In this document: positions 52,923 to 62,312 of the stretch, piece after piece
Layout of the letters: each line of letters begins with the position of its first letter
How positions within the stretch are numbered: position 1 is the stretch's first letter
NCBI GenBank assembly: GCA_028823955.1
Contig: JAPPFE010000021.1
Location: 4,165-68,164 of the forward strand
Direction of reading: 5' to 3'
Source of the DNA: Candidatus Dadabacteria bacterium
GTDB taxonomy: Bacteria; Desulfobacterota_D; UBA1144; Nemesobacterales; Nemesobacteraceae
Length of the DNA: 64,000 nucleotides
The notes under the pieces: model-generated
The model's database searches: none
What the model was told of the DNA's origin: nothing
What the model saw: only the letters and a program-made list of their open reading frames with translations
Translations under genes and position numbers: made by a program

Positions 52923-53855
52923 TTACGAATTCCCCGCCGAGCGGGATATGCCCCTTAGGGTTTTCTTCAAGTACCCGCCGTTTTCCCGCAGCACTTTGAC
53001 CGACTCTTCGGGCAAGAGGCCGCCGAGTTTCATTACCACGGCAACCTTGAGATTTCCGCCGGCTTTCTGGAAAAGCGAGGCAGCCTCCTCTTCCCCCACG
53101 CCACATATGTCCATTATGATTCTCCTTGCCCTGTCGACAAGCTTTGACGATGTGGGCTTAAGGTCAACCATCAGGTTTCCGTAAGTTTTCCCGAGAAGTA
53201 CCATCGCGGTCGTCGTAACCATGTTAAGGACCATCTTGGTAGCGGTAGCGGCCTTGAGCCTGGTGGAACCCACTATCACTTCAGGACCGACAAGAAGGGG
53301 TATGACCAAGTCGGCCGGGGTGTTCTCTGGCTCGCTGCAGCATACAAGTATGCTTGTACAACCAACCGTCTTTGCATACTCAAGAGCTGATATCACAAAC
53401 GGCGTACCGGAGCTCGCCGCGATTCCCAAGACCACGTCGTCCCCCGAGAGTTTTTTGTCACGGAGGGCTTCCACGGAAGCCGTAGCGGAATCCTCAGCAC
53501 CCTCGACCGAGTTCCATACTGCATCCCGCCCTCCCGCCATAACCGCCTGCACCGTTTCGGGATCCGTTCCGAAGGTAGGCGGGCATTCGGCAGCTTCCAT
53601 TACCCCGAGCCGCCCGCTTGTCCCCGCCCCGACGAAAAAGACCCTGCCGCTACGCTCAAGGGAGCGGAAAACCATTTCCGCTGCCTGGGAGATGGAATCT
53701 TTTTCCCTGGAAACGGCCTCAAACGCCGCTTGGTCTTCCCCGCTTACAAGATCGATGATCTCGGAACATGAAAGTTCATCGATACTGACCGTCCTCGGGT
53801 TTGCTTTCTCTGTGAGCAGGTGTCCTGTCCGGCGAGTCTTTTCCACAGGAAACAT
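52923..53855 (-). CDS. murQ: N-acetylmuramic acid 6-phosphate etherase
   Basis: 310 aa. SIS domain with GAGTSGRLG. Confidence 0.9.
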   Translation of the reverse strand: MFPVEKTRRTGHLLTEKANPRTVSIDELSCSEIIDLVSGEDQAAFEAVSREKDSISQAAEMVFRSLERSGRVFFVGAGTSGRLGVMEAAECPPTFGTDPETVQAVMAGGRDAVWNSVEGAEDSATASVEALRDKKLSGDDVVLGIAASSGTPFVISALEYAKTVGCTSILVCCSEPENTPADLVIPLLVGPEVIVGSTRLKAATATKMVLNMVTTTAMVLLGKTYGNLMVDLKPTSSKLVDRARRIIMDICGVGEEEAASLFQKAGGNLKVAVVMKLGGLLPEESVKVLRENGGYLKKTLRGISRSAGNS

Positions 53856-53947
53856 TATATCTGAAACATGCGCCGCTTATCCGGAGAACCGTCCGCGGTG
53901 CCGGGTTTGATTTGTAAGCGATATCCGTATAGAGTGCTTTGGATATT

Positions 53948-54021
53948 GCGGGTGTAGCTCAGCTGGCCAGAGCATTGGCTTCCCAAGCCAAGGGTCGCGG
54001 GTTCGAATCCCGTCGCCCGCT
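53948..54021 (+). tRNA. tRNA-Gly (anticodon CCC)
   Basis: Hand-folded cloverleaf. Acceptor stem GCGGGTG/CGCCCGC. D-arm GCTC..GAGC. Anticodon stem TTGGC/GCCAA with loop TTCCCAA. T-arm GCGGG-TTCGAAT-CCCGT. CCA not encoded. Confidence 0.85.
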
Positions 54022-54148
54022 CTCACTCTCTGAAGGCTGTATTTGAATTCTGGTTGTCGCACTAATATCAAATCCGCCCGATTTGTATTGATGATTCTGC
54101 TTTTCCCAATCCGAAAAAATTAAGTTCGTGGAAAAACATTTAGAAATA

Positions 54149-55369
54149 TCATAAGAGGGTAAATTGTCGGCGAATCTCTCCAGTACCAACAAACTGAGAG
54201 AGCAGGCGGTAGTTTCCTTGTTCATGGCGAACCCTGCCAGCCACTATTGCCGGATGAATATTTAAAGCTCTTGCCAGATTCATAACGGCTACTGCGGTAG
54301 TTGGCTGCTTGCTGGCCTCGCTGGTATCCCAAACTGCTTTTGGTATTAATGCTTCCTTAACCCATTGGTCTGCTTGTGTCTCCATTTCATCTTGTAACAT
54401 AGATCTGGCTCCGCCCAAACTTAAATCATCAAAAAAGGCGTCCCCTTCGTTATTGTCAATATGAAGTCCAACATGGGCTAACTCATGTAAAAGACAGAAC
54501 CAGAAATTATCAATCCGGTCATAACGTAGAGTAAGACCAATGACTGGCCTCCCGTCACTGCCTCGCAGTGCCGCCCCATCAAGATATGTCTTCGGCAGAT
54601 GCCTGACTGTCACAAAAGAAATACCGTTGTTCGCCAAGAACTCCGCCGCAAGTCGCGGTCCTTCTTCCGACCAGCTCATTTGTGCAAGCTGACTCAGAAA
54701 ATCCAACGTTACGGTTCCGGGTTTGTAAGCCACCTCGGGACGATTCTCGTTCGCCGCACCCAACACCTTCCAGCACCATGCCTTGAGCGCATACGGATCC
54801 GTTTTGGCATTTAGGCGACGGTAATCATTCTTTCGGTAAAAAGCAGCATAAGCCACATCCCGACCACCTGCACGTTCAATCAGTTCACCAATAATTTCTT
54901 CAGCGCGCTCCTTCAAGTTGGGAACACTTGGAATCCACTCCCACTTCGCCATAGTTTTGAGTGGGAACCGGCCCCACTGAATATCGTCCTCGGGATTCTC
55001 AAGCCCTGCATCCGAATTGCGAATCAGCACTTCGGCTGGAATACCAATATGTTCATGAAGAGCTCTCGCCATAGGCATAGTTATGGCGCGTTTCCCGGAA
55101 AGCACTTCGGAAACCCTCGCACGGCTTCCTATGAAAGGAACCAAGTCGCGCTGATTCAAACCTGCCTGCTCCATGCGAAATTTGATCGCTTCAATAGGGT
55201 CTGGATACCCCATTGGCACATGTTTGCTCTCGTAGAGCTCAACAAGGTCAACCAGAACATCAAGTTCTGCGCCCTCGGGACTATCTAATTCGGCTTCAAA
55301 GATTTCGTCGATACGAGCCAAGGCAGCTTCATAGTCTTCCTCGGTACGAATTGGTTTTACGTTAACCAT
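54149..55369 (-). CDS. higA: HigA antitoxin (XRE HTH) fused to an ImmA/IrrE-type HEXXH zinc metallopeptidase domain
   Basis: Residues 1-128 align along their length with E. coli HigA (YgjM), ending in the HTH RVSEVLSGKRAITMPMARAL. Residues ~130-406 are an extra domain containing HELAHVGLH (HExxH) in ImmA/IrrE (COG2856) context. GGAGGAGG SD. Starts 2 nt after the higB stop. Confidence 0.8.
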   Translation of the reverse strand: MVNVKPIRTEEDYEAALARIDEIFEAELDSPEGAELDVLVDLVELYESKHVPMGYPDPIEAIKFRMEQAGLNQRDLVPFIGSRARVSEVLSGKRAITMPMARALHEHIGIPAEVLIRNSDAGLENPEDDIQWGRFPLKTMAKWEWIPSVPNLKERAEEIIGELIERAGGRDVAYAAFYRKNDYRRLNAKTDPYALKAWCWKVLGAANENRPEVAYKPGTVTLDFLSQLAQMSWSEEGPRLAAEFLANNGISFVTVRHLPKTYLDGAALRGSDGRPVIGLTLRYDRIDNFWFCLLHELAHVGLHIDNNEGDAFFDDLSLGGARSMLQDEMETQADQWVKEALIPKAVWDTSEASKQPTTAVAVMNLARALNIHPAIVAGRVRHEQGNYRLLSQFVGTGEIRRQFTLL

Positions 55370-55371
55370 TT

Positions 55372-55665
55372 TTATACCTCCTCCGCATCTATACGATCAT
55401 ACTGCGCGTGGGTTCCCACGAAACGTATATAAACCACGCGGTATTTATAGTTAATTTTCACGACTAATCTGTACTTATTGCCCTTTATGTTAAAAACCAC
55501 TCGATTGTCCCCCAAGATACTGGCACTACGGTACTTTTCTTTTACCTCGGCAGGAGTATCCCAATCTTCTTTCTCAACCTCGCGATACCAACTGAGAAGT
55601 GATTGCTCTGCATCTTTATAACACTCATAAAATTCCCGCAACCTTTTCTTGGCTATAATTCTCAT
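55372..55665 (-). CDS. higB: type II toxin HigB (YgjN-type, RelE/ParE superfamily mRNA interferase)
   Basis: 97 aa. Similar along its length to E. coli HigB (MRIIAKKRL ... NIKGNKYRLVVKINYKYRVVYIRFVGTHAQYD). Toxin-first higBA order. Confidence 0.85.
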   Translation of the reverse strand: MRIIAKKRLREFYECYKDAEQSLLSWYREVEKEDWDTPAEVKEKYRSASILGDNRVVFNIKGNKYRLVVKINYKYRVVYIRFVGTHAQYDRIDAEEV

Positions 55666-55678
55666 GTAGCAACTTATA

Positions 55679-55714
55679 TCGCTCCCAATTTAATTTGAAG
55701 TACTTCGCTCCCAA
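55679..55714. promoter_or_regulatory. two copies of TCGCTCCCAA (55679-55688 and 55705-55714) in the higBA promoter region; candidate HigA operators
   Basis: Direct 10-bp repeat read from the sequence. The proximal copy lies between putative -35 (TTCAAA) and -10 (TATAAG) elements on the minus strand. Confidence 0.4.
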
Positions 55715-56011
55715 ACTGATACAATTCTAACTTCTTTCATTCAAATGTCAAACAGTAAAATTTTGGTACAGACTTCATATAGAAAAAGAGGCTTAGTTCT
55801 TGTTTCCTAGACGAAGTGTTGCATTTAAAAAACTACGGGGTAATGCAAATTGGCATTAAAAGCGATCGATTGAAATAACACAACAGCTATGGAGCCGTTA
55901 ACATTAAAAACGCTGTTAATTTAAGGTTTGTGACAAATGCAGTTTAATTCACGTCTCAACTTCGAGAGTTCTAAAATCAAACGATTTATCGAATTGAAAA
56001 ACCAGAACCAA

Positions 56012-56683
56012 TCAAGACCTTTTCTTAAAAACCAGATACTTAAGGCCGAAGAAGTTCCAGAAAAGCGTGAATATCAAGGATACCGCAGCTCCTATGTTCG
56101 CCCACACCGTGGACGAGATGGAGCCCCCCGAACCTCCAAATTCGGCAACCACGTACGAAGCAACCGTAACGTTTATCACGAGCCCCACGCCCACGACGGC
56201 GAAGAACCTTATGAACTGGTTCATCCATCCCTCGACCTCCTTGCTGCGAAACGTCCAGAACTTGTTCCACGCATAGCCGTTAACGTTTGCCAGAATAAAG
56301 GAAGCCGCCTTGAAAACCGAGTAGAGGATCCCCTCCGCCACCCCGGAATAATAGATGAGCAGGTTAAGTATTCCGAAGTCGATTACGAGGTTAGAAAAAC
56401 TTATGACGCAGAACTTTGCGAACTGGACCAGCGAGGACCAACGGGAGAAAAACCCGAGAAAAAGAAAGTGGATCACGGGACTCAGTATGAACATCCCCCA
56501 CTGCACTCCCACAAGCTTGGAGTACACTCCGGGCATCTCGGCGCGAAGCGTGAAGAAGAGAAGCAGTATGAAAAACGCGTTTATCTCGCTTATTACGAAT
56601 AAAACGGGATAATCCGATCTGGTCATGGGGGTTTTCGGGGAAAAAAAGGGTTGTATCCCGAAGCAAGAAGCTTCGGGATACAA
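56012..56683 (-). CDS. GtrA-family membrane protein
   Basis: GtrA signature ANVNGYAWNKFWTFR and 4 TM helices in the C-terminal ~130 aa. The long N-terminal extension suggests the true start is an internal ATG (56536 or 56494). Confidence 0.55.
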   Translation of the reverse strand: MYPEASCFGIQPFFSPKTPMTRSDYPVLFVISEINAFFILLLFFTLRAEMPGVYSKLVGVQWGMFILSPVIHFLFLGFFSRWSSLVQFAKFCVISFSNLVIDFGILNLLIYYSGVAEGILYSVFKAASFILANVNGYAWNKFWTFRSKEVEGWMNQFIRFFAVVGVGLVINVTVASYVVAEFGGSGGSISSTVWANIGAAVSLIFTLFWNFFGLKYLVFKKRS

Positions 56684-56709: not shown

Positions 56710-57483
56710 TCAGTTAACTACCTGGTACTGGGGGTAGACGAAGCTTCCCTTGGTCCAGATCGCCCAGGTCGGATCCGCAAGCGGCTTAAGCTTGTGAAGC
56801 GAATGTCCCTCGGGAGCCGTGAACGTTATTTTCGGGTTAGCCATTGATACCGTTCCCCCGTTCCACGGGATCGGGTACTTGACCACTCCCTTGTCCTCCA
56901 TAAACCCGAAGTAGTTAAGGTGTCCTCCGCCGAATCCTCCGAGTTCGCTTCCGACCTCGGCCGTGGCCTCGATCATCGACTGTCCGCCGATTTCAAGCTT
57001 TGTCTTAAGCACTCCGTTCTCTACCACGGTGGTGGTCATTCCCTCCTGAGCGGGAATTCCGACAGGCTTGGTGAACTCCCTCATCGTGGGAGAGCTGTTG
57101 TAGTAATGAACGAAGTACCTTCCGGGGTAGGTTATATCGGAATCCATCACGTACGAGTTGTGACCTTCAAGCTCAATCGTCAGATAGGTGAGCGTGTACG
57201 CCCCGAATCCCGAGGTCTGGTTCTTGTCGGGAACCGTGTACATGTTTATGACCACGTGATTGTTCGGATGGGGCTTAAGACCCGCCGGAAGCATCGATTT
57301 CAAAACCTCCGGGTCGGCCTTGTAGGCTGCGATGAACATCCAAGCACCGGTTACCAGCTGCGGGCCCGGAAGCGAAAACGACTTGGCCGGGGCCGGCGGG
57401 GCCTCACCCGAGTGCGTGGCCGTGAGCGGAACGGCACAGAAAACCAAAGCAATCAAAAAAACCAAAAACCTTCTAGCTAACAT
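56710..57483 (-). CDS. hypothetical exported protein
   Basis: 257 aa with signal peptide (LVFLIALVFCAVPLTA). Confidence 0.5.
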   Translation of the reverse strand: MLARRFLVFLIALVFCAVPLTATHSGEAPPAPAKSFSLPGPQLVTGAWMFIAAYKADPEVLKSMLPAGLKPHPNNHVVINMYTVPDKNQTSGFGAYTLTYLTIELEGHNSYVMDSDITYPGRYFVHYYNSSPTMREFTKPVGIPAQEGMTTTVVENGVLKTKLEIGGQSMIEATAEVGSELGGFGGGHLNYFGFMEDKGVVKYPIPWNGGTVSMANPKITFTAPEGHSLHKLKPLADPTWAIWTKGSFVYPQYQVVN

Positions 57484-58480: not shown

Positions 58481-60046
58481 ATGACAAAGATAAAAAGAGC
58501 GGTAATAAGCGTTTACGACAAAAAGGGGATAACCACGCTCGCAAAGGGCCTGGGGGAACTCGGCGTTGAGATGCTCTCAACCGGAGGGACCGCCAGGAGG
58601 CTTAGGGACGGCGGGGCGAAAGTGACGGAAATATCGGACTACACGGGGTTTCCCGAAATACTTGGAGGAAGGGTGAAAACGCTTCACCCCAAAATACACG
58701 GAGGCCTTCTTGGAATGAGGGACGATGAGCGCCACCTTGGGGAAATGGCCGAGAATTCCATAGAGCCGATAGACATGCTCGTGGTCAACTTCTACCCTTT
58801 TGAGGAAGTGGTCGCGAAAGAGGGAACCACGTTTTCTGAAGCGATAGAGAACATAGACATAGGCGGGCCGGCGATGCTTCGGGCCGCGGCGAAGAACCAC
58901 GCGTCGGTAAGCGTGCTCACCGACCCCGAAGACTACGGTGCCGTGCTCAGGGAGCTTCGCAGAAACAAGGGAAAAATCTCCCCCGAAACCAATTTCCGCC
59001 TCTCGGCAAAGGCCTTTTCCTACGTCTCGAGGTACGACGCGGCGATATCGAATTATCTCTCGTTCCTCGAACCTGACGGCGAAAGAAACCCGCTTCCGGC
59101 GACCTACACCCTCTACCTCGAAAAAAAGCTTGATCTTCGCTACGGGGAGAACCCCCACCAGCTGGGGGCCTTCTACACGGAAGGCGGCATAGAAGGGGCG
59201 CACTGCGTGGCAAACGCCAGACAACTCCAAGGGAAAGAGCTTTCCCTTAACAACATATACGACACCGACTCCGCCTTCGAGCTCGTAAGGGAGTTCCAAG
59301 AGACCGCATGCGTAATAGTGAAGCACAACAATCCCTGCGGAGCGGCACTCGGGGACACTCCGGCAGAGGCGTTCTCCCGGGCGAGGGAATGCGACCCGGA
59401 AAGCGCTTTCGGCGGGATAATCGCCTTTAACAGGGAGGTTGACGAGACCGCGGCCGGGGAGATAGCCGGCATGTTCGCCGAGGTCGTGATAGCCCCCGGT
59501 TTTTCTGAGAAGGCGCTCATGCTGCTTGGGGCAAGGAAGAACCTGCGGGTGCTTCTTTCGGGAGGCATGGATATCGGCGGGGCGGGCATCTGGGACATAA
59601 AGAAAGTGACGGGAGGGGCACTCATACAGCAAAGCGACAGGGGATTGGAAGATGATTTCTCAGAGATAAAGATTCCGACCAGGAGAAAACCCACCCCCGA
59701 GGAAATGGAAGATCTGCGCTTCGCTTGGAAAGTCTGCCGGCACACCAAGTCAAATGCCATTGTCTACGCGAGAAACCTCCGGACGATGGGAATAGGGGCG
59801 GGGCAGATGAGCAGGGTAGATTCAGTCAGGATCGCGGGGATGAAGGCCCGAACGCCGACTGACGGCTCGGTACTCGCTTCTGACGCGTTTTTCCCTTTCA
59901 GAGACGGAGTTGACGAGGCGGCGCGTGCGGGAATCACGGCAATAGTGCAGCCCGGGGGATCCGTAAGGGACGACGAAGTGATAGCCGCAGCGGATGAGCA
60001 CTCGATGGCGATGATCTTTACCGGAAAAAGGCACTTTAAGCACTGA
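58481..60046 (+). CDS. purH: bifunctional AICAR transformylase / IMP cyclohydrolase
   Basis: 521 aa. MGS-like N-domain (RALISVYDK-type start). AICARFT C-domain. Confidence 0.95.
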   Translation: MTKIKRAVISVYDKKGITTLAKGLGELGVEMLSTGGTARRLRDGGAKVTEISDYTGFPEILGGRVKTLHPKIHGGLLGMRDDERHLGEMAENSIEPIDMLVVNFYPFEEVVAKEGTTFSEAIENIDIGGPAMLRAAAKNHASVSVLTDPEDYGAVLRELRRNKGKISPETNFRLSAKAFSYVSRYDAAISNYLSFLEPDGERNPLPATYTLYLEKKLDLRYGENPHQLGAFYTEGGIEGAHCVANARQLQGKELSLNNIYDTDSAFELVREFQETACVIVKHNNPCGAALGDTPAEAFSRARECDPESAFGGIIAFNREVDETAAGEIAGMFAEVVIAPGFSEKALMLLGARKNLRVLLSGGMDIGGAGIWDIKKVTGGALIQQSDRGLEDDFSEIKIPTRRKPTPEEMEDLRFAWKVCRHTKSNAIVYARNLRTMGIGAGQMSRVDSVRIAGMKARTPTDGSVLASDAFFPFRDGVDEAARAGITAIVQPGGSVRDDEVIAAADEHSMAMIFTGKRHFKH

Positions 60047-60209
60047 GCACCTGCCGGTTAAAGAAAGGATTGGGCGATATTCTTTCTTTACGGAAGCTCT
60101 AAAGAAAGCTTTTGCGGTTTTCCTTTCTTAAGGAGACCTCCAAGAAGAGGGTGCTTTCGCTAGAGATAAGCAACGGAAAACGCTTAGCGCTTGGTGACCT
60201 CGCGATATT

Positions 60210-60449
60210 TCACCTCTCTTGACAGCCAGAACTCCGCACTGCCGCCAACGCCCGTTCCAGTCGAAACGCGGCATCCTCCGTAATCGCCGCCTTGCCTTGT
60301 ACAAGCCGGCTTACGTGCTTTGTCGTATAACCGGTACGGTCTGCGAACTTAGCCTGAGCCCAGTTTTTCTCTTCGAGAATGTCAAGAATCGTATCTCCAG
60401 GCGGAGACAAACGCCATTTCGGTTCAAACCGATCAAGATTTTCAGTCAT
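60210..60449 (-). CDS. HigA-like XRE-family antitoxin (COG3093 / VapI type), orphan
   Basis: 79 aa. HTH AQAKFADRTGYTTKHVSRLVQGKAAIT. AGGAGA SD 8 nt upstream. No partner toxin ORF in any frame upstream (60450-60740). Confidence 0.65.
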   Translation of the reverse strand: MTENLDRFEPKWRLSPPGDTILDILEEKNWAQAKFADRTGYTTKHVSRLVQGKAAITEDAAFRLERALAAVRSSGCQER

Positions 60450-60854
60450 GACAGTCTCCTATAAATACAATCCGTATTGGTTTCAATGGGAAACTATATA
60501 CAAGGTTACAATTATCTCTCTATTCAGCTATTTGAACGAGTGTGGAATAAAGATTTCTTAAGGAAAGGCCTAGCCAACATTTCACAACTTCACTAATTAA
60601 CCTAGGAAGTTCCGTGATTATAACTTATCTCGGAAAACCTGACTGTCACAGCTAAGAGATGTTTTTGCAGAATCAACCACAAAAGTTTTCTACACACTTT
60701 TTGCTATCAAAAAGATTTTTCGACTGTCTAAAGCATTCCGGCTTCTGCCCTCGTGAAAGCTACTCTTATTAAGCCATTGCTTTTATGGTTAAATAAAGAT
60801 AATCGACTATGCTTATTTGACTTTTCTTTTCTCACCGTTATCATACTTAGCGCT

Positions 60855-62312
60855 ATGCGGAAAGTTCCCGAAGAAGAAATCCTCAAGCGGTTGCGTGTTG
60901 ACAACCCTTGGTGGAAGAACCGAAACAATGTCAGGTGGAAAAAATATCCTGAACGGGTCTATTTAACCCCGTTTTTCGAACTTGTATACAGGAAGAAAAT
61001 TAACAGGGCGATTGTGCTGATGGGACCGCGCAGAGTCGGTAAAACTGTTATGGTTCACCAGGCAATTGCCAAGCTAATAAAGGAAAAAGTTCCACCGCGG
61101 CGGATTCTCTACGTTTCTCTGGACAATCCTCTGTATTCAGGCCTCTGGCTTGAAAAAATACTTCTTATGTTCTCCGAACTAAACTCTTTAACGCAAAAGG
61201 AGCGTTGCTATGTTTTTTTTGACGAGATTCAGTATTTAGGCGACTGGGAGAGACACCTCAAATCCTTAGTTGATTCCTACCCGCAGCACCGTTTCGTAGC
61301 TACCGGTTCGGCTGCTGCTGCGCTAAAACTGAAAAGCAATGAATCCGGAGCCGGGAGATTCTCTGATTTTACACTTCCTCCTCTCACGTTCTATGAATAT
61401 ATAAGATTCTCGGACACTAATAAAAAATCCCCTTTTCTGCAAAAAGACGGTTCTTTTGAACCCAGAATTCTCGAAAAAATTGAAGATTTAAACAATGAGT
61501 TCATAAATTATATAAATTTCGGCGGCTACCCAGAAACCGTATTTCTGAAGGACGCCAGAGAAAACCCCCGTTTCGTCAAGGACGATATTATAGATAAGGT
61601 GCTTCTGCGGGATTTGCCAAGCCTGTACGGAATTCAAGACATCGCAGAACTAAACAGGCTGTTTGTGACGCTTTCCCACAACACGGGACAAGAAGTTGAC
61701 CTGCCTGGCATTTCTCAAGACTCAAACGTGTCGAAAGATACGATATTGAGATATCTGGAATATCTGGAAGCAGCTTTTCTGATAAAACGCGTAAATAGGG
61801 TTGACAGAAGTGTCCGGAAGTTTAAAAGAAACCACACATTCAAAGTCTATTTAAGGAATGCCTCGATGTACCCAGCGCTGTTCGGTTCCGTGAGTAAGAG
61901 CAACAAAGCCGTCTTGGGAAGATTGGTAGAGACAGCTGTTTTCAGCCACTTTTTTCATTTCGCGGAATATCTAAACCCACATTATGCAAGATGGAAAAAC
62001 GGAGAGGTTGATCTGATAATCATGGACGTACTGGGAAAACCCATTCAGGCGGTTGAAATCAAGTGGTCCAACAGACCGCTTGAAAACCCGTCTCAGCTTA
62101 AAGCGTTGCTTAGTTTTGGCGAAAAAAACCAACTTAGCAGTTCGAAAAAATTGATTTGCTGTACTCTTACCAAACTCGATTCCCGGACATACGGCAATAA
62201 AGAAATCGTGTTTTGTCCGACAAGTTTTTTCTGTCTTCTGTACGGACAATCTCTGGAAAGTCCGGAATTCAGAAAAGCTTTGATTGGGCCTTCAATTGAA
62301 GGTGAGAATTAA
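60855..62312 (+). CDS. AAA+ ATPase with DUF4143 C-terminal domain (COG1373 family)
   Basis: Walker A GPRRVGKT. Walker B VFFDEIQY. C-terminal DUF4143-like region. AT-rich codon usage. Start placed at ATG 60855. Confidence 0.8.
   Translation: MRKVPEEEILKRLRVDNPWWKNRNNVRWKKYPERVYLTPFFELVYRKKINRAIVLMGPRRVGKTVMVHQAIAKLIKEKVPPRRILYVSLDNPLYSGLWLEKILLMFSELNSLTQKERCYVFFDEIQYLGDWERHLKSLVDSYPQHRFVATGSAAAALKLKSNESGAGRFSDFTLPPLTFYEYIRFSDTNKKSPFLQKDGSFEPRILEKIEDLNNEFINYINFGGYPETVFLKDARENPRFVKDDIIDKVLLRDLPSLYGIQDIAELNRLFVTLSHNTGQEVDLPGISQDSNVSKDTILRYLEYLEAAFLIKRVNRVDRSVRKFKRNHTFKVYLRNASMYPALFGSVSKSNKAVLGRLVETAVFSHFFHFAEYLNPHYARWKNGEVDLIIMDVLGKPIQAVEIKWSNRPLENPSQLKALLSFGEKNQLSSSKKLICCTLTKLDSRTYGNKEIVFCPTSFFCLLYGQSLESPEFRKALIGPSIEGEN

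Follow-up and report, generated by a model that had tools for sequence, protein, structure and literature searches.

What use would an antitoxin have for a protease of its own? The question is raised by two adjacent genes in a 64,000-nucleotide (nt) stretch of DNA from Candidatus Dadabacteria bacterium (GenBank assembly GCA_028823955.1, contig JAPPFE010000021.1, positions 4,165 to 68,164 of the forward strand), which is referred to here as the window. The first, gene A, encodes a HigB-family toxin, and the second, gene B, a HigA-like protein that runs on into a zinc metallopeptidase domain. A preliminary description, made from the sequence alone, read the pair as a toxin–antitoxin (TA) module in which the antitoxin destroys itself on a signal such as DNA damage or phage infection, thereby releasing HigB, and considered this logic uncharacterised for HigBA. 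Is it a new kind of system? Judged by its sequence relationships it is not: A–B is a member of a large catalogued family related to the defence system PD-lambda-2. Very probably the pair is a two-gene TA-type module of the 'ImmA-protease antitoxin' class, belongs to a sister clade of PD-lambda-2 and sits in a variable genomic slot. As for how it works, the reading favoured here, with a probability of about 0.4, is that HigB would be the toxin, that the N-terminal part of B would neutralise it and repress the operon, and that the peptidase would be a built-in trigger inactivating B.

55372-55665, minus strand: gene A, HigB-family toxin, 97 amino acids (aa)
54149-55369, minus strand: gene B, fusion of a HigA-like part, an Xre helix-turn-helix (HTH) and an M78 zinc peptidase, 406 aa

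Both open reading frames (ORFs) lie on the minus strand exactly where they had been placed before. Gene A comes first, its TAA separated from the ATG of gene B by 2 nt, and the ribosome-binding site of gene B, GAGGAGG, is located inside the 3' end of gene A; the pair is a translationally coupled two-gene module. This toxin-first order is that of the HigB family and is the same in all related loci, and in practically all full-length loci among 107 fetched B directly follows A. But is gene A a genuine, intact HigB? It matches the Pfam model HigB_toxin (PF09907) over profile positions 1-74 of 74 with E=1.3e-34 and 118.7 bits (cut-off 27), E. coli HigB (5IFG_A) with E=2e-6, and the PADLOC model PD-Lambda-2_A (PDLC03979) over positions 1-97 of 97 with E=3.3e-43, so that its earlier identification as an E. 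coli-type HigB is borne out. The residues N59, G62, N63 and R66 of gene A align with N61, G64, N65 and R68 of K-12 HigB, and R81, T85, H86, Y89 and D90 with R83, T87, H88, Y91 and D92. Among 63 homologues of A from the clade of the window, N59, G62, N63, R66, H86 and Y89 are kept in 62 or 63, R81 in 62, T85 in 61 and D90 in 60. Work on SehA, a HigB homologue, showed that the substitutions H88A and Y91A abolish toxicity (bioRxiv 10.1101/2024.07.09.602740); these residues correspond to H86 and Y89 in the window. Gene A can be regarded as an intact HigB with its catalytic motif kept, and its product is presumably toxic.

55022-55369, minus strand: HigA-like N-terminal helices and Xre-type HTH (B residues 1-116), presumed HigB-binding and DNA-binding part
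54620-55021, minus strand: linker and all-helical subdomain (B residues 117-250), preceding the peptidase core
54152-54619, minus strand: M78 (ImmA/IrrE/CapP-like) zinc metallopeptidase core (B residues 251-406)
54473-54487, minus strand: codons of HExxH, H295-E296-L-A-H299, zinc-binding and catalytic motif read in the sequence
54380-54382, minus strand: codon of E330, probable third zinc ligand, in the helix after the HExxH helix

How much of B is HigA? Residues ~6-113 match E. coli K-12 HigA (5IFG_B) with E=1.5e-7 as a single sequence, a profile built from 119 homologues of B matches it with E=2e-10, and Foldseek pairs the N-terminal part with 6JQ4 and 6KML_B at a probability of 1.0; the same part also matches phrog_1373 and phrog_11202. 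The HigA-like N-terminus of the preliminary description stands, and only its end shifts, from ~128 aa to ~116-120. At 406 aa, with ~290 extra residues, B lies well outside the size of a small single-module HigA (~100-140 aa), and its score of 16.5 bits against the Proteus vulgaris-type HigA model TIGR02607 (cut-off 47.7) places it outside that type as well. The module resembles HigB–HigA of K-12 (YgjN–YgjM; 5IFG, 6KML) in its toxin-first order, its PF09907 toxin and the arrangement of N-terminal helices followed by an Xre HTH. The difference is that K-12 HigA (138 aa) ends after the HTH, whereas B adds the helical subdomain and the M78 peptidase.

The linker itself (residues 117-124) is modelled with a predicted local distance difference test score (pLDDT) below 50, and residues 125-250 are helical and confidently placed in a model of the C-terminal part. 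Residues 117-250 matched no known family and are the least conserved part of B, yet W198, S232, G237 and P238 reach a conservation of 94% or more. Behind them lies the peptidase, whose active site is nearly invariant in 141 sequences of 40-64% identity: H295 is conserved in 100%, E296 in 98%, H299 in 100% and E330 in 99%, with R282, D287 and W290 likewise at 98-100%. By analogy with IrrE, E330 is the probable third zinc ligand. The M78 assignment is based on Pfam, the PADLOC model capP (E=1e-3) and fold comparison. Peptidase_M78 (PF06114) is matched at E<=0.01 by 113 of 119 close homologues of B (best 4e-7), and B homologues of the E. coli clade carry a precomputed PF06114 assignment; the modelled C-terminal part has a CapP/IrrE-like zincin fold, closest to solved M78 members. 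The family profile of B, searched against the sequences of the Protein Data Bank (PDB), matched HigA alone and no solved M78 enzyme. The domain proposed earlier, an M78 peptidase of the ImmA/IrrE kind with HExxH, is hence confirmed, and its predicted fold is that of a metallopeptidase.

Which known systems look like this one? The closest is PD-lambda-2, an E. coli system that Vassallo et al. (2022, PMC9519451) found to give abortive-infection defence. It consists of three proteins: the first is HigB-like, the second joins a HigA-like Xre domain to a peptidase at its C-terminus, and the third is a relative of a P4 phage antitoxin. As in the window, its HigB-family gene lies directly upstream of a fusion of HigA/Xre and M78 of ~400 aa. 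The PADLOC model PD-Lambda-2_B (PDLC03982) matches gene B over positions 1-396 of 402 with E=4.5e-142, and B of the window shares with E. coli PD-lambda-2 B 42% identity from end to end as well as the conserved HExxH...E site; for A the identity is only 23%. The statement that such logic is uncharacterised for HigBA does not survive, given that PD-lambda-2 joins a HigB-like protein to a HigA–peptidase and acts in abortive-infection defence. Nor is the idea of a self-destroying antitoxin new. Makarova et al. (2009, PMC2701414) found fusions of COG2856 and Xre in operons with RelE and PIN toxins, predicted 'three-component' systems without experiments, and proposed that the protease cleaves the Xre repressor/antitoxin, with an explicit analogy to LexA; the window holds a concrete member of that group, of HigB (PF09907) flavour. 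Ernits et al. (2023, PMC10440598) suggested HTH cleavage for ImmA-domain antitoxins. Antitoxins of this kind have been validated in RosmerTA (RmrT/RmrA), where they act with diverse toxins in phage defence, and they form a hub (node D25) in the NetFlax network. Like B, RmrA has an HTH at its N-terminus and a zinc peptidase of the ImmA type. B of the window gave no match to RmrA models at E<=1, and E. coli B a weak one (4.5e-8) in the peptidase core; B has extra HigA-type N-terminal helices that RmrA lacks, and the characterised RmrT toxins are described as membrane-depolarising or of unknown function, not as HigB.

The family is large. A search with B over 1.84 billion cluster representatives (clusters at 50% identity) returned 10,719 clusters at E<=1e-3, of which 624 reach E<=1e-30; the best 150 listed are almost all ~400 aa long and align over their whole length. 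Gammaproteobacteria, Gemmatimonadota, Defluviicoccus, Spirochaetia and Thermodesulfobacteriota are among the named sources. Plasmids of Acinetobacter, Limnohabitans, Deefgea and Paraburkholderia carry members, as do 11 viral contigs. In RefSeq the homologous pairs are annotated as 'HigB family toxin' and 'ImmA/IrrE family metallo-endopeptidase'. An apparent HigB–B 'fusion' of 468 aa (P0118) was rejected as an artefact, a frameshifted partial HigB run into B in which HARGIRRDRRRGGM replaces THAxYD at the C-terminus of HigB. For the present the locus counts as a typical member of a catalogued family, found in an uncultured bacterium.

Is the pair then simply another PD-lambda-2? The third gene says no. 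A homologue of Beta_protein (PF14350), the third PD-lambda-2 gene, is encoded neither in the window nor in any of 95 related full-length two-gene loci, and E. coli C aligned against the whole window by tblastn reached a best E of 1.5. The 66 loci with downstream sequence share no recurrent downstream gene; there were only small clusters of near-duplicate loci. A three-gene reading of the window was rejected on these two grounds, the tblastn search for Beta_protein and the survey of the 66 loci. The genuine E. coli PD-lambda-2 locus scores E=5e-29, 9e-178 and 1e-155 against the PADLOC A, B and C models, its A being best matched by PDLC03978, a sub-model other than the PDLC03979 of the window. 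Further three-gene contexts were sampled from Salmonella, Vibrio, a Marinobacter-like metagenome contig and Xanthomonas, which with E. coli make up a small sample of five lineages plus a Sinorhizobium variant: in 4 of the 4 further contexts a PF14350 gene directly follows B, and in the same 4 the Pfam HigB match of A is weak or absent. In alignments, A of the three-gene clade (87-90 aa) ends before the T-H-x-x-Y-D motif and has lost the equivalent of R66; E. coli A reaches 24.6 bits against PF09907, below the cut-off. The 'HigB' of the PD-lambda-2 clade is probably no longer an RNase. Two clades can be told apart on these features, one with a truncated HigB and Beta_protein and one with an intact HigB and no third gene, a division that is new in this analysis.

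A search of viral contigs with E. coli B and Beta_protein for more three-gene examples found the same E. coli-like contig only, and a tblastn search of plasmids with E. coli C gave no match. The Sinorhizobium terangae plasmid pCB3126_2 (L112:1848-4592) carries a variant in which a DUF6932 gene replaces HigB as the first gene, followed by an Xre–M78 fusion (E=2e-77 against PADLOC PD-Lambda-2_B) and Beta_protein; many Rhizobium and Agrobacterium plasmids show the same partial match, over residues 69-403. These arrangements suggest that B and C form a core which swaps its first partner.

How might A and B work together in the window? In the favoured reading gene A would be an active HigB-type ribosome-dependent mRNA endonuclease. 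In the resting cell the HigA-like N-terminus of B would bind and neutralise HigB, and the Xre HTH would repress the promoter upstream of A. Some cue, most likely a signal of phage infection and not necessarily single-stranded DNA (ssDNA), would then activate the M78 peptidase, which would cleave the HigA-like part or the linker of B, in cis or between the protomers of a B dimer. Cleavage would free HigB and de-repress the operon; translation would stop and the infection would be aborted. A signal-triggered, self-destroying antitoxin that would release HigB is plausible. The domain identities, the intact state of both catalytic motifs, the strict linkage of A and B and the lack of a third gene are observed here, and from them and the known relatives we infer the toxicity of A, its neutralisation by B, the self-cleavage, the trigger and the anti-phage role. 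This reading is preferred because HigB is intact, B is homologous to HigA, A tracks residues 1-55 of B and the peptidase site is conserved; because the ratio of nonsynonymous to synonymous substitution rates (dN/dS) is low, A and B stay linked, plasmids and viral contigs carry relatives and a ShosTA pair occupies the same slot in sister genomes; and because ImmA-domain antitoxins act in RosmerTA, M78 enzymes cleave Xre repressors and PD-lambda-2 works by abortive infection. The tracking was seen in pairwise distances, where those of A follow those of B residues 1-55 (r=0.86, standardised coefficient 0.66, 57 non-identical pairs) and the coefficient for the peptidase domain is -0.19 (57 pairs). 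It fits a HigB–HigA-type contact and is supporting but soft. In the 5IFG structure HigB is held by the N-terminal helices of HigA.

Several points weigh against this reading. The sequences behind the mirror-tree correlation of A and B are related, so it allows no valid significance test; the HTH_3 match over B residues 62-114 scores just below the Pfam threshold, and B itself reaches 20.6 bits against PF06114, just below the gathering score of 22. The C-terminal model of B holds no C-terminal GAF domain that could act as a sensor: the peptidase core is predicted to reach the C-terminus, all helical after residue ~330, with no further domain. IrrE and CapP bind ssDNA in a groove between the peptidase domain and the C-terminal GAF domain, and this type of groove is therefore absent from B; the DNA-damage trigger entertained in the preliminary description finds no support in the architecture of B, and an ssDNA or DNA-damage trigger was not adopted for the same reason. 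The cysteine-switch loop of CapP is likewise not evident in B, where C292 is not conserved across the family. Cleavage of a HigA–peptidase fusion is not reported in the literature searched, which also gave no account resolving the mechanism of PD-lambda-2 and no test of the two-gene clade with intact HigB. The third gene, needed for defence in PD-lambda-2 (PMC9519451), is not in the window. Finally, in PD-lambda-2, the only homologue with experiments behind it, over-expressed B is toxic on its own and is rescued by co-expression of A (PMC9519451), a polarity opposite to the one proposed here.

Could B then be the toxic effector of the window, cleaving host or phage proteins or mis-regulating transcription, with A as an inhibitor or sensor and infection separating the two? 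The rescue experiment speaks for this, as does the 42% identity of the two B proteins with their common conserved active site. But the A protein of that clade is truncated and always accompanied by Beta_protein, with 24.6 bits against PF09907 where A of the window has 118.7; the preservation of the A motif in 60-63 of 63 two-gene homologues is hard to square with a mere inhibitor; and A co-varies with the HigA-like N-terminus of B, not with its peptidase domain. A toxic B with A as its antidote is an unlikely arrangement for the window. The polarity of PD-lambda-2 was observed in a clade whose HigB is degenerate and whose third gene is obligatory; it need not apply here, and results from that system should not be carried over blindly to the two-gene clade with intact HigB. 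The same B-alone toxicity, together with the intact HigB motif and the constrained peptidase site, would also fit a mutual neutralisation, in which free HigB and free peptidase are both toxic, the A–B complex silences both and the trigger releases an RNase and a protease at once. Among the pairs compared A did not detectably co-vary with the peptidase domain, this account is less economical, and we consider it quite unlikely.

A broader and still unlikely proposal would connect the two clades. The widespread two-gene clade might be ancestral and distinct in mechanism, with an active HigB and an active M78 peptidase in one complex that cuts itself at the linker (~117-125) on a phage cue and possibly frees two toxic activities; PD-lambda-2 would then be derived, having lost HigB catalysis and recruited Beta_protein as an effector or sensor. 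If self-cleavage of B with release of HigB were shown, B would become the first type II antitoxin demonstrated to carry its own dedicated protease as trigger, and the mechanism would explain a family of hundreds of clusters in many phyla, on plasmids and in phages. The interest that remains lies in the two-gene clade with intact HigB and in the role of the peptidase in these systems.

Does the peptidase need to release a toxin at all? Two features upstream of gene A bear on this.

55724-55751, minus strand: sigma-70-like promoter, TTGACA-16-TAGAAT, upstream of gene A, matching the consensus at 11 of 12 positions
55679-55714, minus strand: candidate operator for the HTH of B, between the promoter and the start codon of gene A

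Both hexamers of the predicted promoter are kept in 7 related loci. The candidate operator consists of two TTGGGAGCGA direct repeats (55714-55705 and 55688-55679) 26 nt apart, with the palindrome AAGTACTT (55705-55698) between them, and its core recurs in seven close relatives. Because these relatives differ so little, the conservation of promoter and operator is no proof of function, and 55679-55714 is put forward as a candidate operator only. ImmA, IrrE and CapP, the characterised M78 relatives, each cut an Xre repressor and in this way act on transcription. ImmA–ImmR, IrrE(PprI)–DdrO and CapP–CapH are pairs of separate proteins, whereas B unites both parts in one chain, HTH first; its output, unlike theirs, would be a toxin and not a regulon. 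A fused version of CapH/CapP could work purely on transcription: the peptidase would cut the HTH part and de-repress the operon, HigB would stay on the N-terminal helices, and the module would be an ordinary stress-inducible or addiction higBA. The strong promoter with its candidate operator, the mode of action of the characterised relatives and the occurrence of family members on plasmids, where addiction would be selected, are all in keeping with such a role. Its difficulties are that the nearest relative studied by experiment is a defence system and acts by abortive infection, that the family is found in viral contigs and defence-rich slots, and that de-repression of a TA operon without freed toxin has no obvious output. 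A purely regulatory peptidase seems improbable.

Where does the module sit, and is it still under selection?

54023-56011: AT-richer islet between the tRNA-Gly gene and the gene of a GtrA-like membrane protein
53948-54022, plus strand: tRNA-Gly(CCC), convergent with gene B, at the edge of the islet (ARAGORN; Rfam 69 bits)

The islet has a GC content of 0.44 against 0.55-0.56 in its flanks (gene A 0.41, gene B 0.49, the two intergenic stretches 0.34-0.36), and 126 nt separate the tRNA from the stop codon of B; the AT-richer islet beside a tRNA gene was correctly recognised before. An Rfam scan of 53500-56500 returned the tRNA alone and no further non-coding RNA. Adjacency to this tRNA was seen in the lineage of the window only and is no trait of the family, a tRNA adjoining 2 of 46 unrelated two-gene loci scanned, and neither an integrase nor att-like direct repeats of the tRNA 3' end were found bounding the islet. 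The order GtrA-like gene, module, tRNA-Gly, murQ, anmK recurs in six metagenome-assembled genomes of Thermodesulfobacteriota or Spirochaetia and on one metagenome contig.

Not every sister genome has kept the pair. Five sister loci (L009, L010 and L012-L014) retain 5' fragments of B only, approximately its first 53-150 codons at the DNA level, with A either missing or cut down to its final 27 codons; a sixth locus, on a Dadabacteria contig and near its edge, has a similarly stopped B and no A. In L012-L014 (4001-4160) B is cut to its first 53 codons. Three remnants (L009:3998-4384, L010:4004-4363 and L011:4001-4390) are HigA-only ORFs of ~119-129 aa that stop just after the HTH, and with a dN/dS between them of 0.13-0.23 they may still be constrained as orphan HigA-like regulators. 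Do the remnants tell which partner is the toxin? They are silent on this, because A and the peptidase part are both gone. They might hint that the module of the window is itself an inert leftover of a mobile element, without current function, and the lack of a flanking integrase or att repeat would fit such a leftover. Yet both ORFs are intact in 8 related genomes, and promoter, ribosome-binding site and catalytic residues are all kept. Across eight copies dN/dS is 0.23 for A and 0.08, 0.18 and 0.08 for B residues 1-120, 121-250 and 251-406; all four parts of the module are under purifying selection. An inert remnant is highly improbable.

In other sister genomes the same slot holds a ShosTA pair, insertion sequence (IS) elements or an ATPase with AAA_14 and DUF4143 domains. 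With cargo so varied, the site behaves as a variable slot for defence and mobile elements. The ShosTA pair (L005:5420-7105, also L012:1874-3271) consists of a DprA-like and a PRTase-like gene, which match PADLOC ShosA with E=8e-79 and ShosT with E=1e-8; in L005 it is placed between the HigB/B module and the tRNA. The window has a second AT-rich stretch at 60000-62312 (GC 0.38-0.43), which includes, at 60753-62312 on the plus strand, a gene for a 519-aa ATPase with AAA_14 and DUF4143 domains (PADLOC candidate PDC-S01, E=9e-59); related ATPases occupy the tRNA-Gly slot of L003 and L009. The gap between murQ and anmK, 1 kb away from the tRNA-Gly slot, is another site of variable cargo. In L004 (6607-7677) and L013 (5547-6631) it contains an inserted pair, absent from the window, that encodes a protein of ~200 aa with a Fic motif (HPFPNGNGRHAR) and an HTH protein of ~153 aa, and in L001 (7940-8401) the HTH gene and an IS30-like transposase. 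Just beyond the GtrA-like gene of the window, at 56710-57483 on the minus strand, lies a gene unrelated to the A–B module; its 257-aa product has what looks like a signal sequence at the N-terminus and matches acetoacetate decarboxylase-like proteins weakly (PF06314, E=7e-8).

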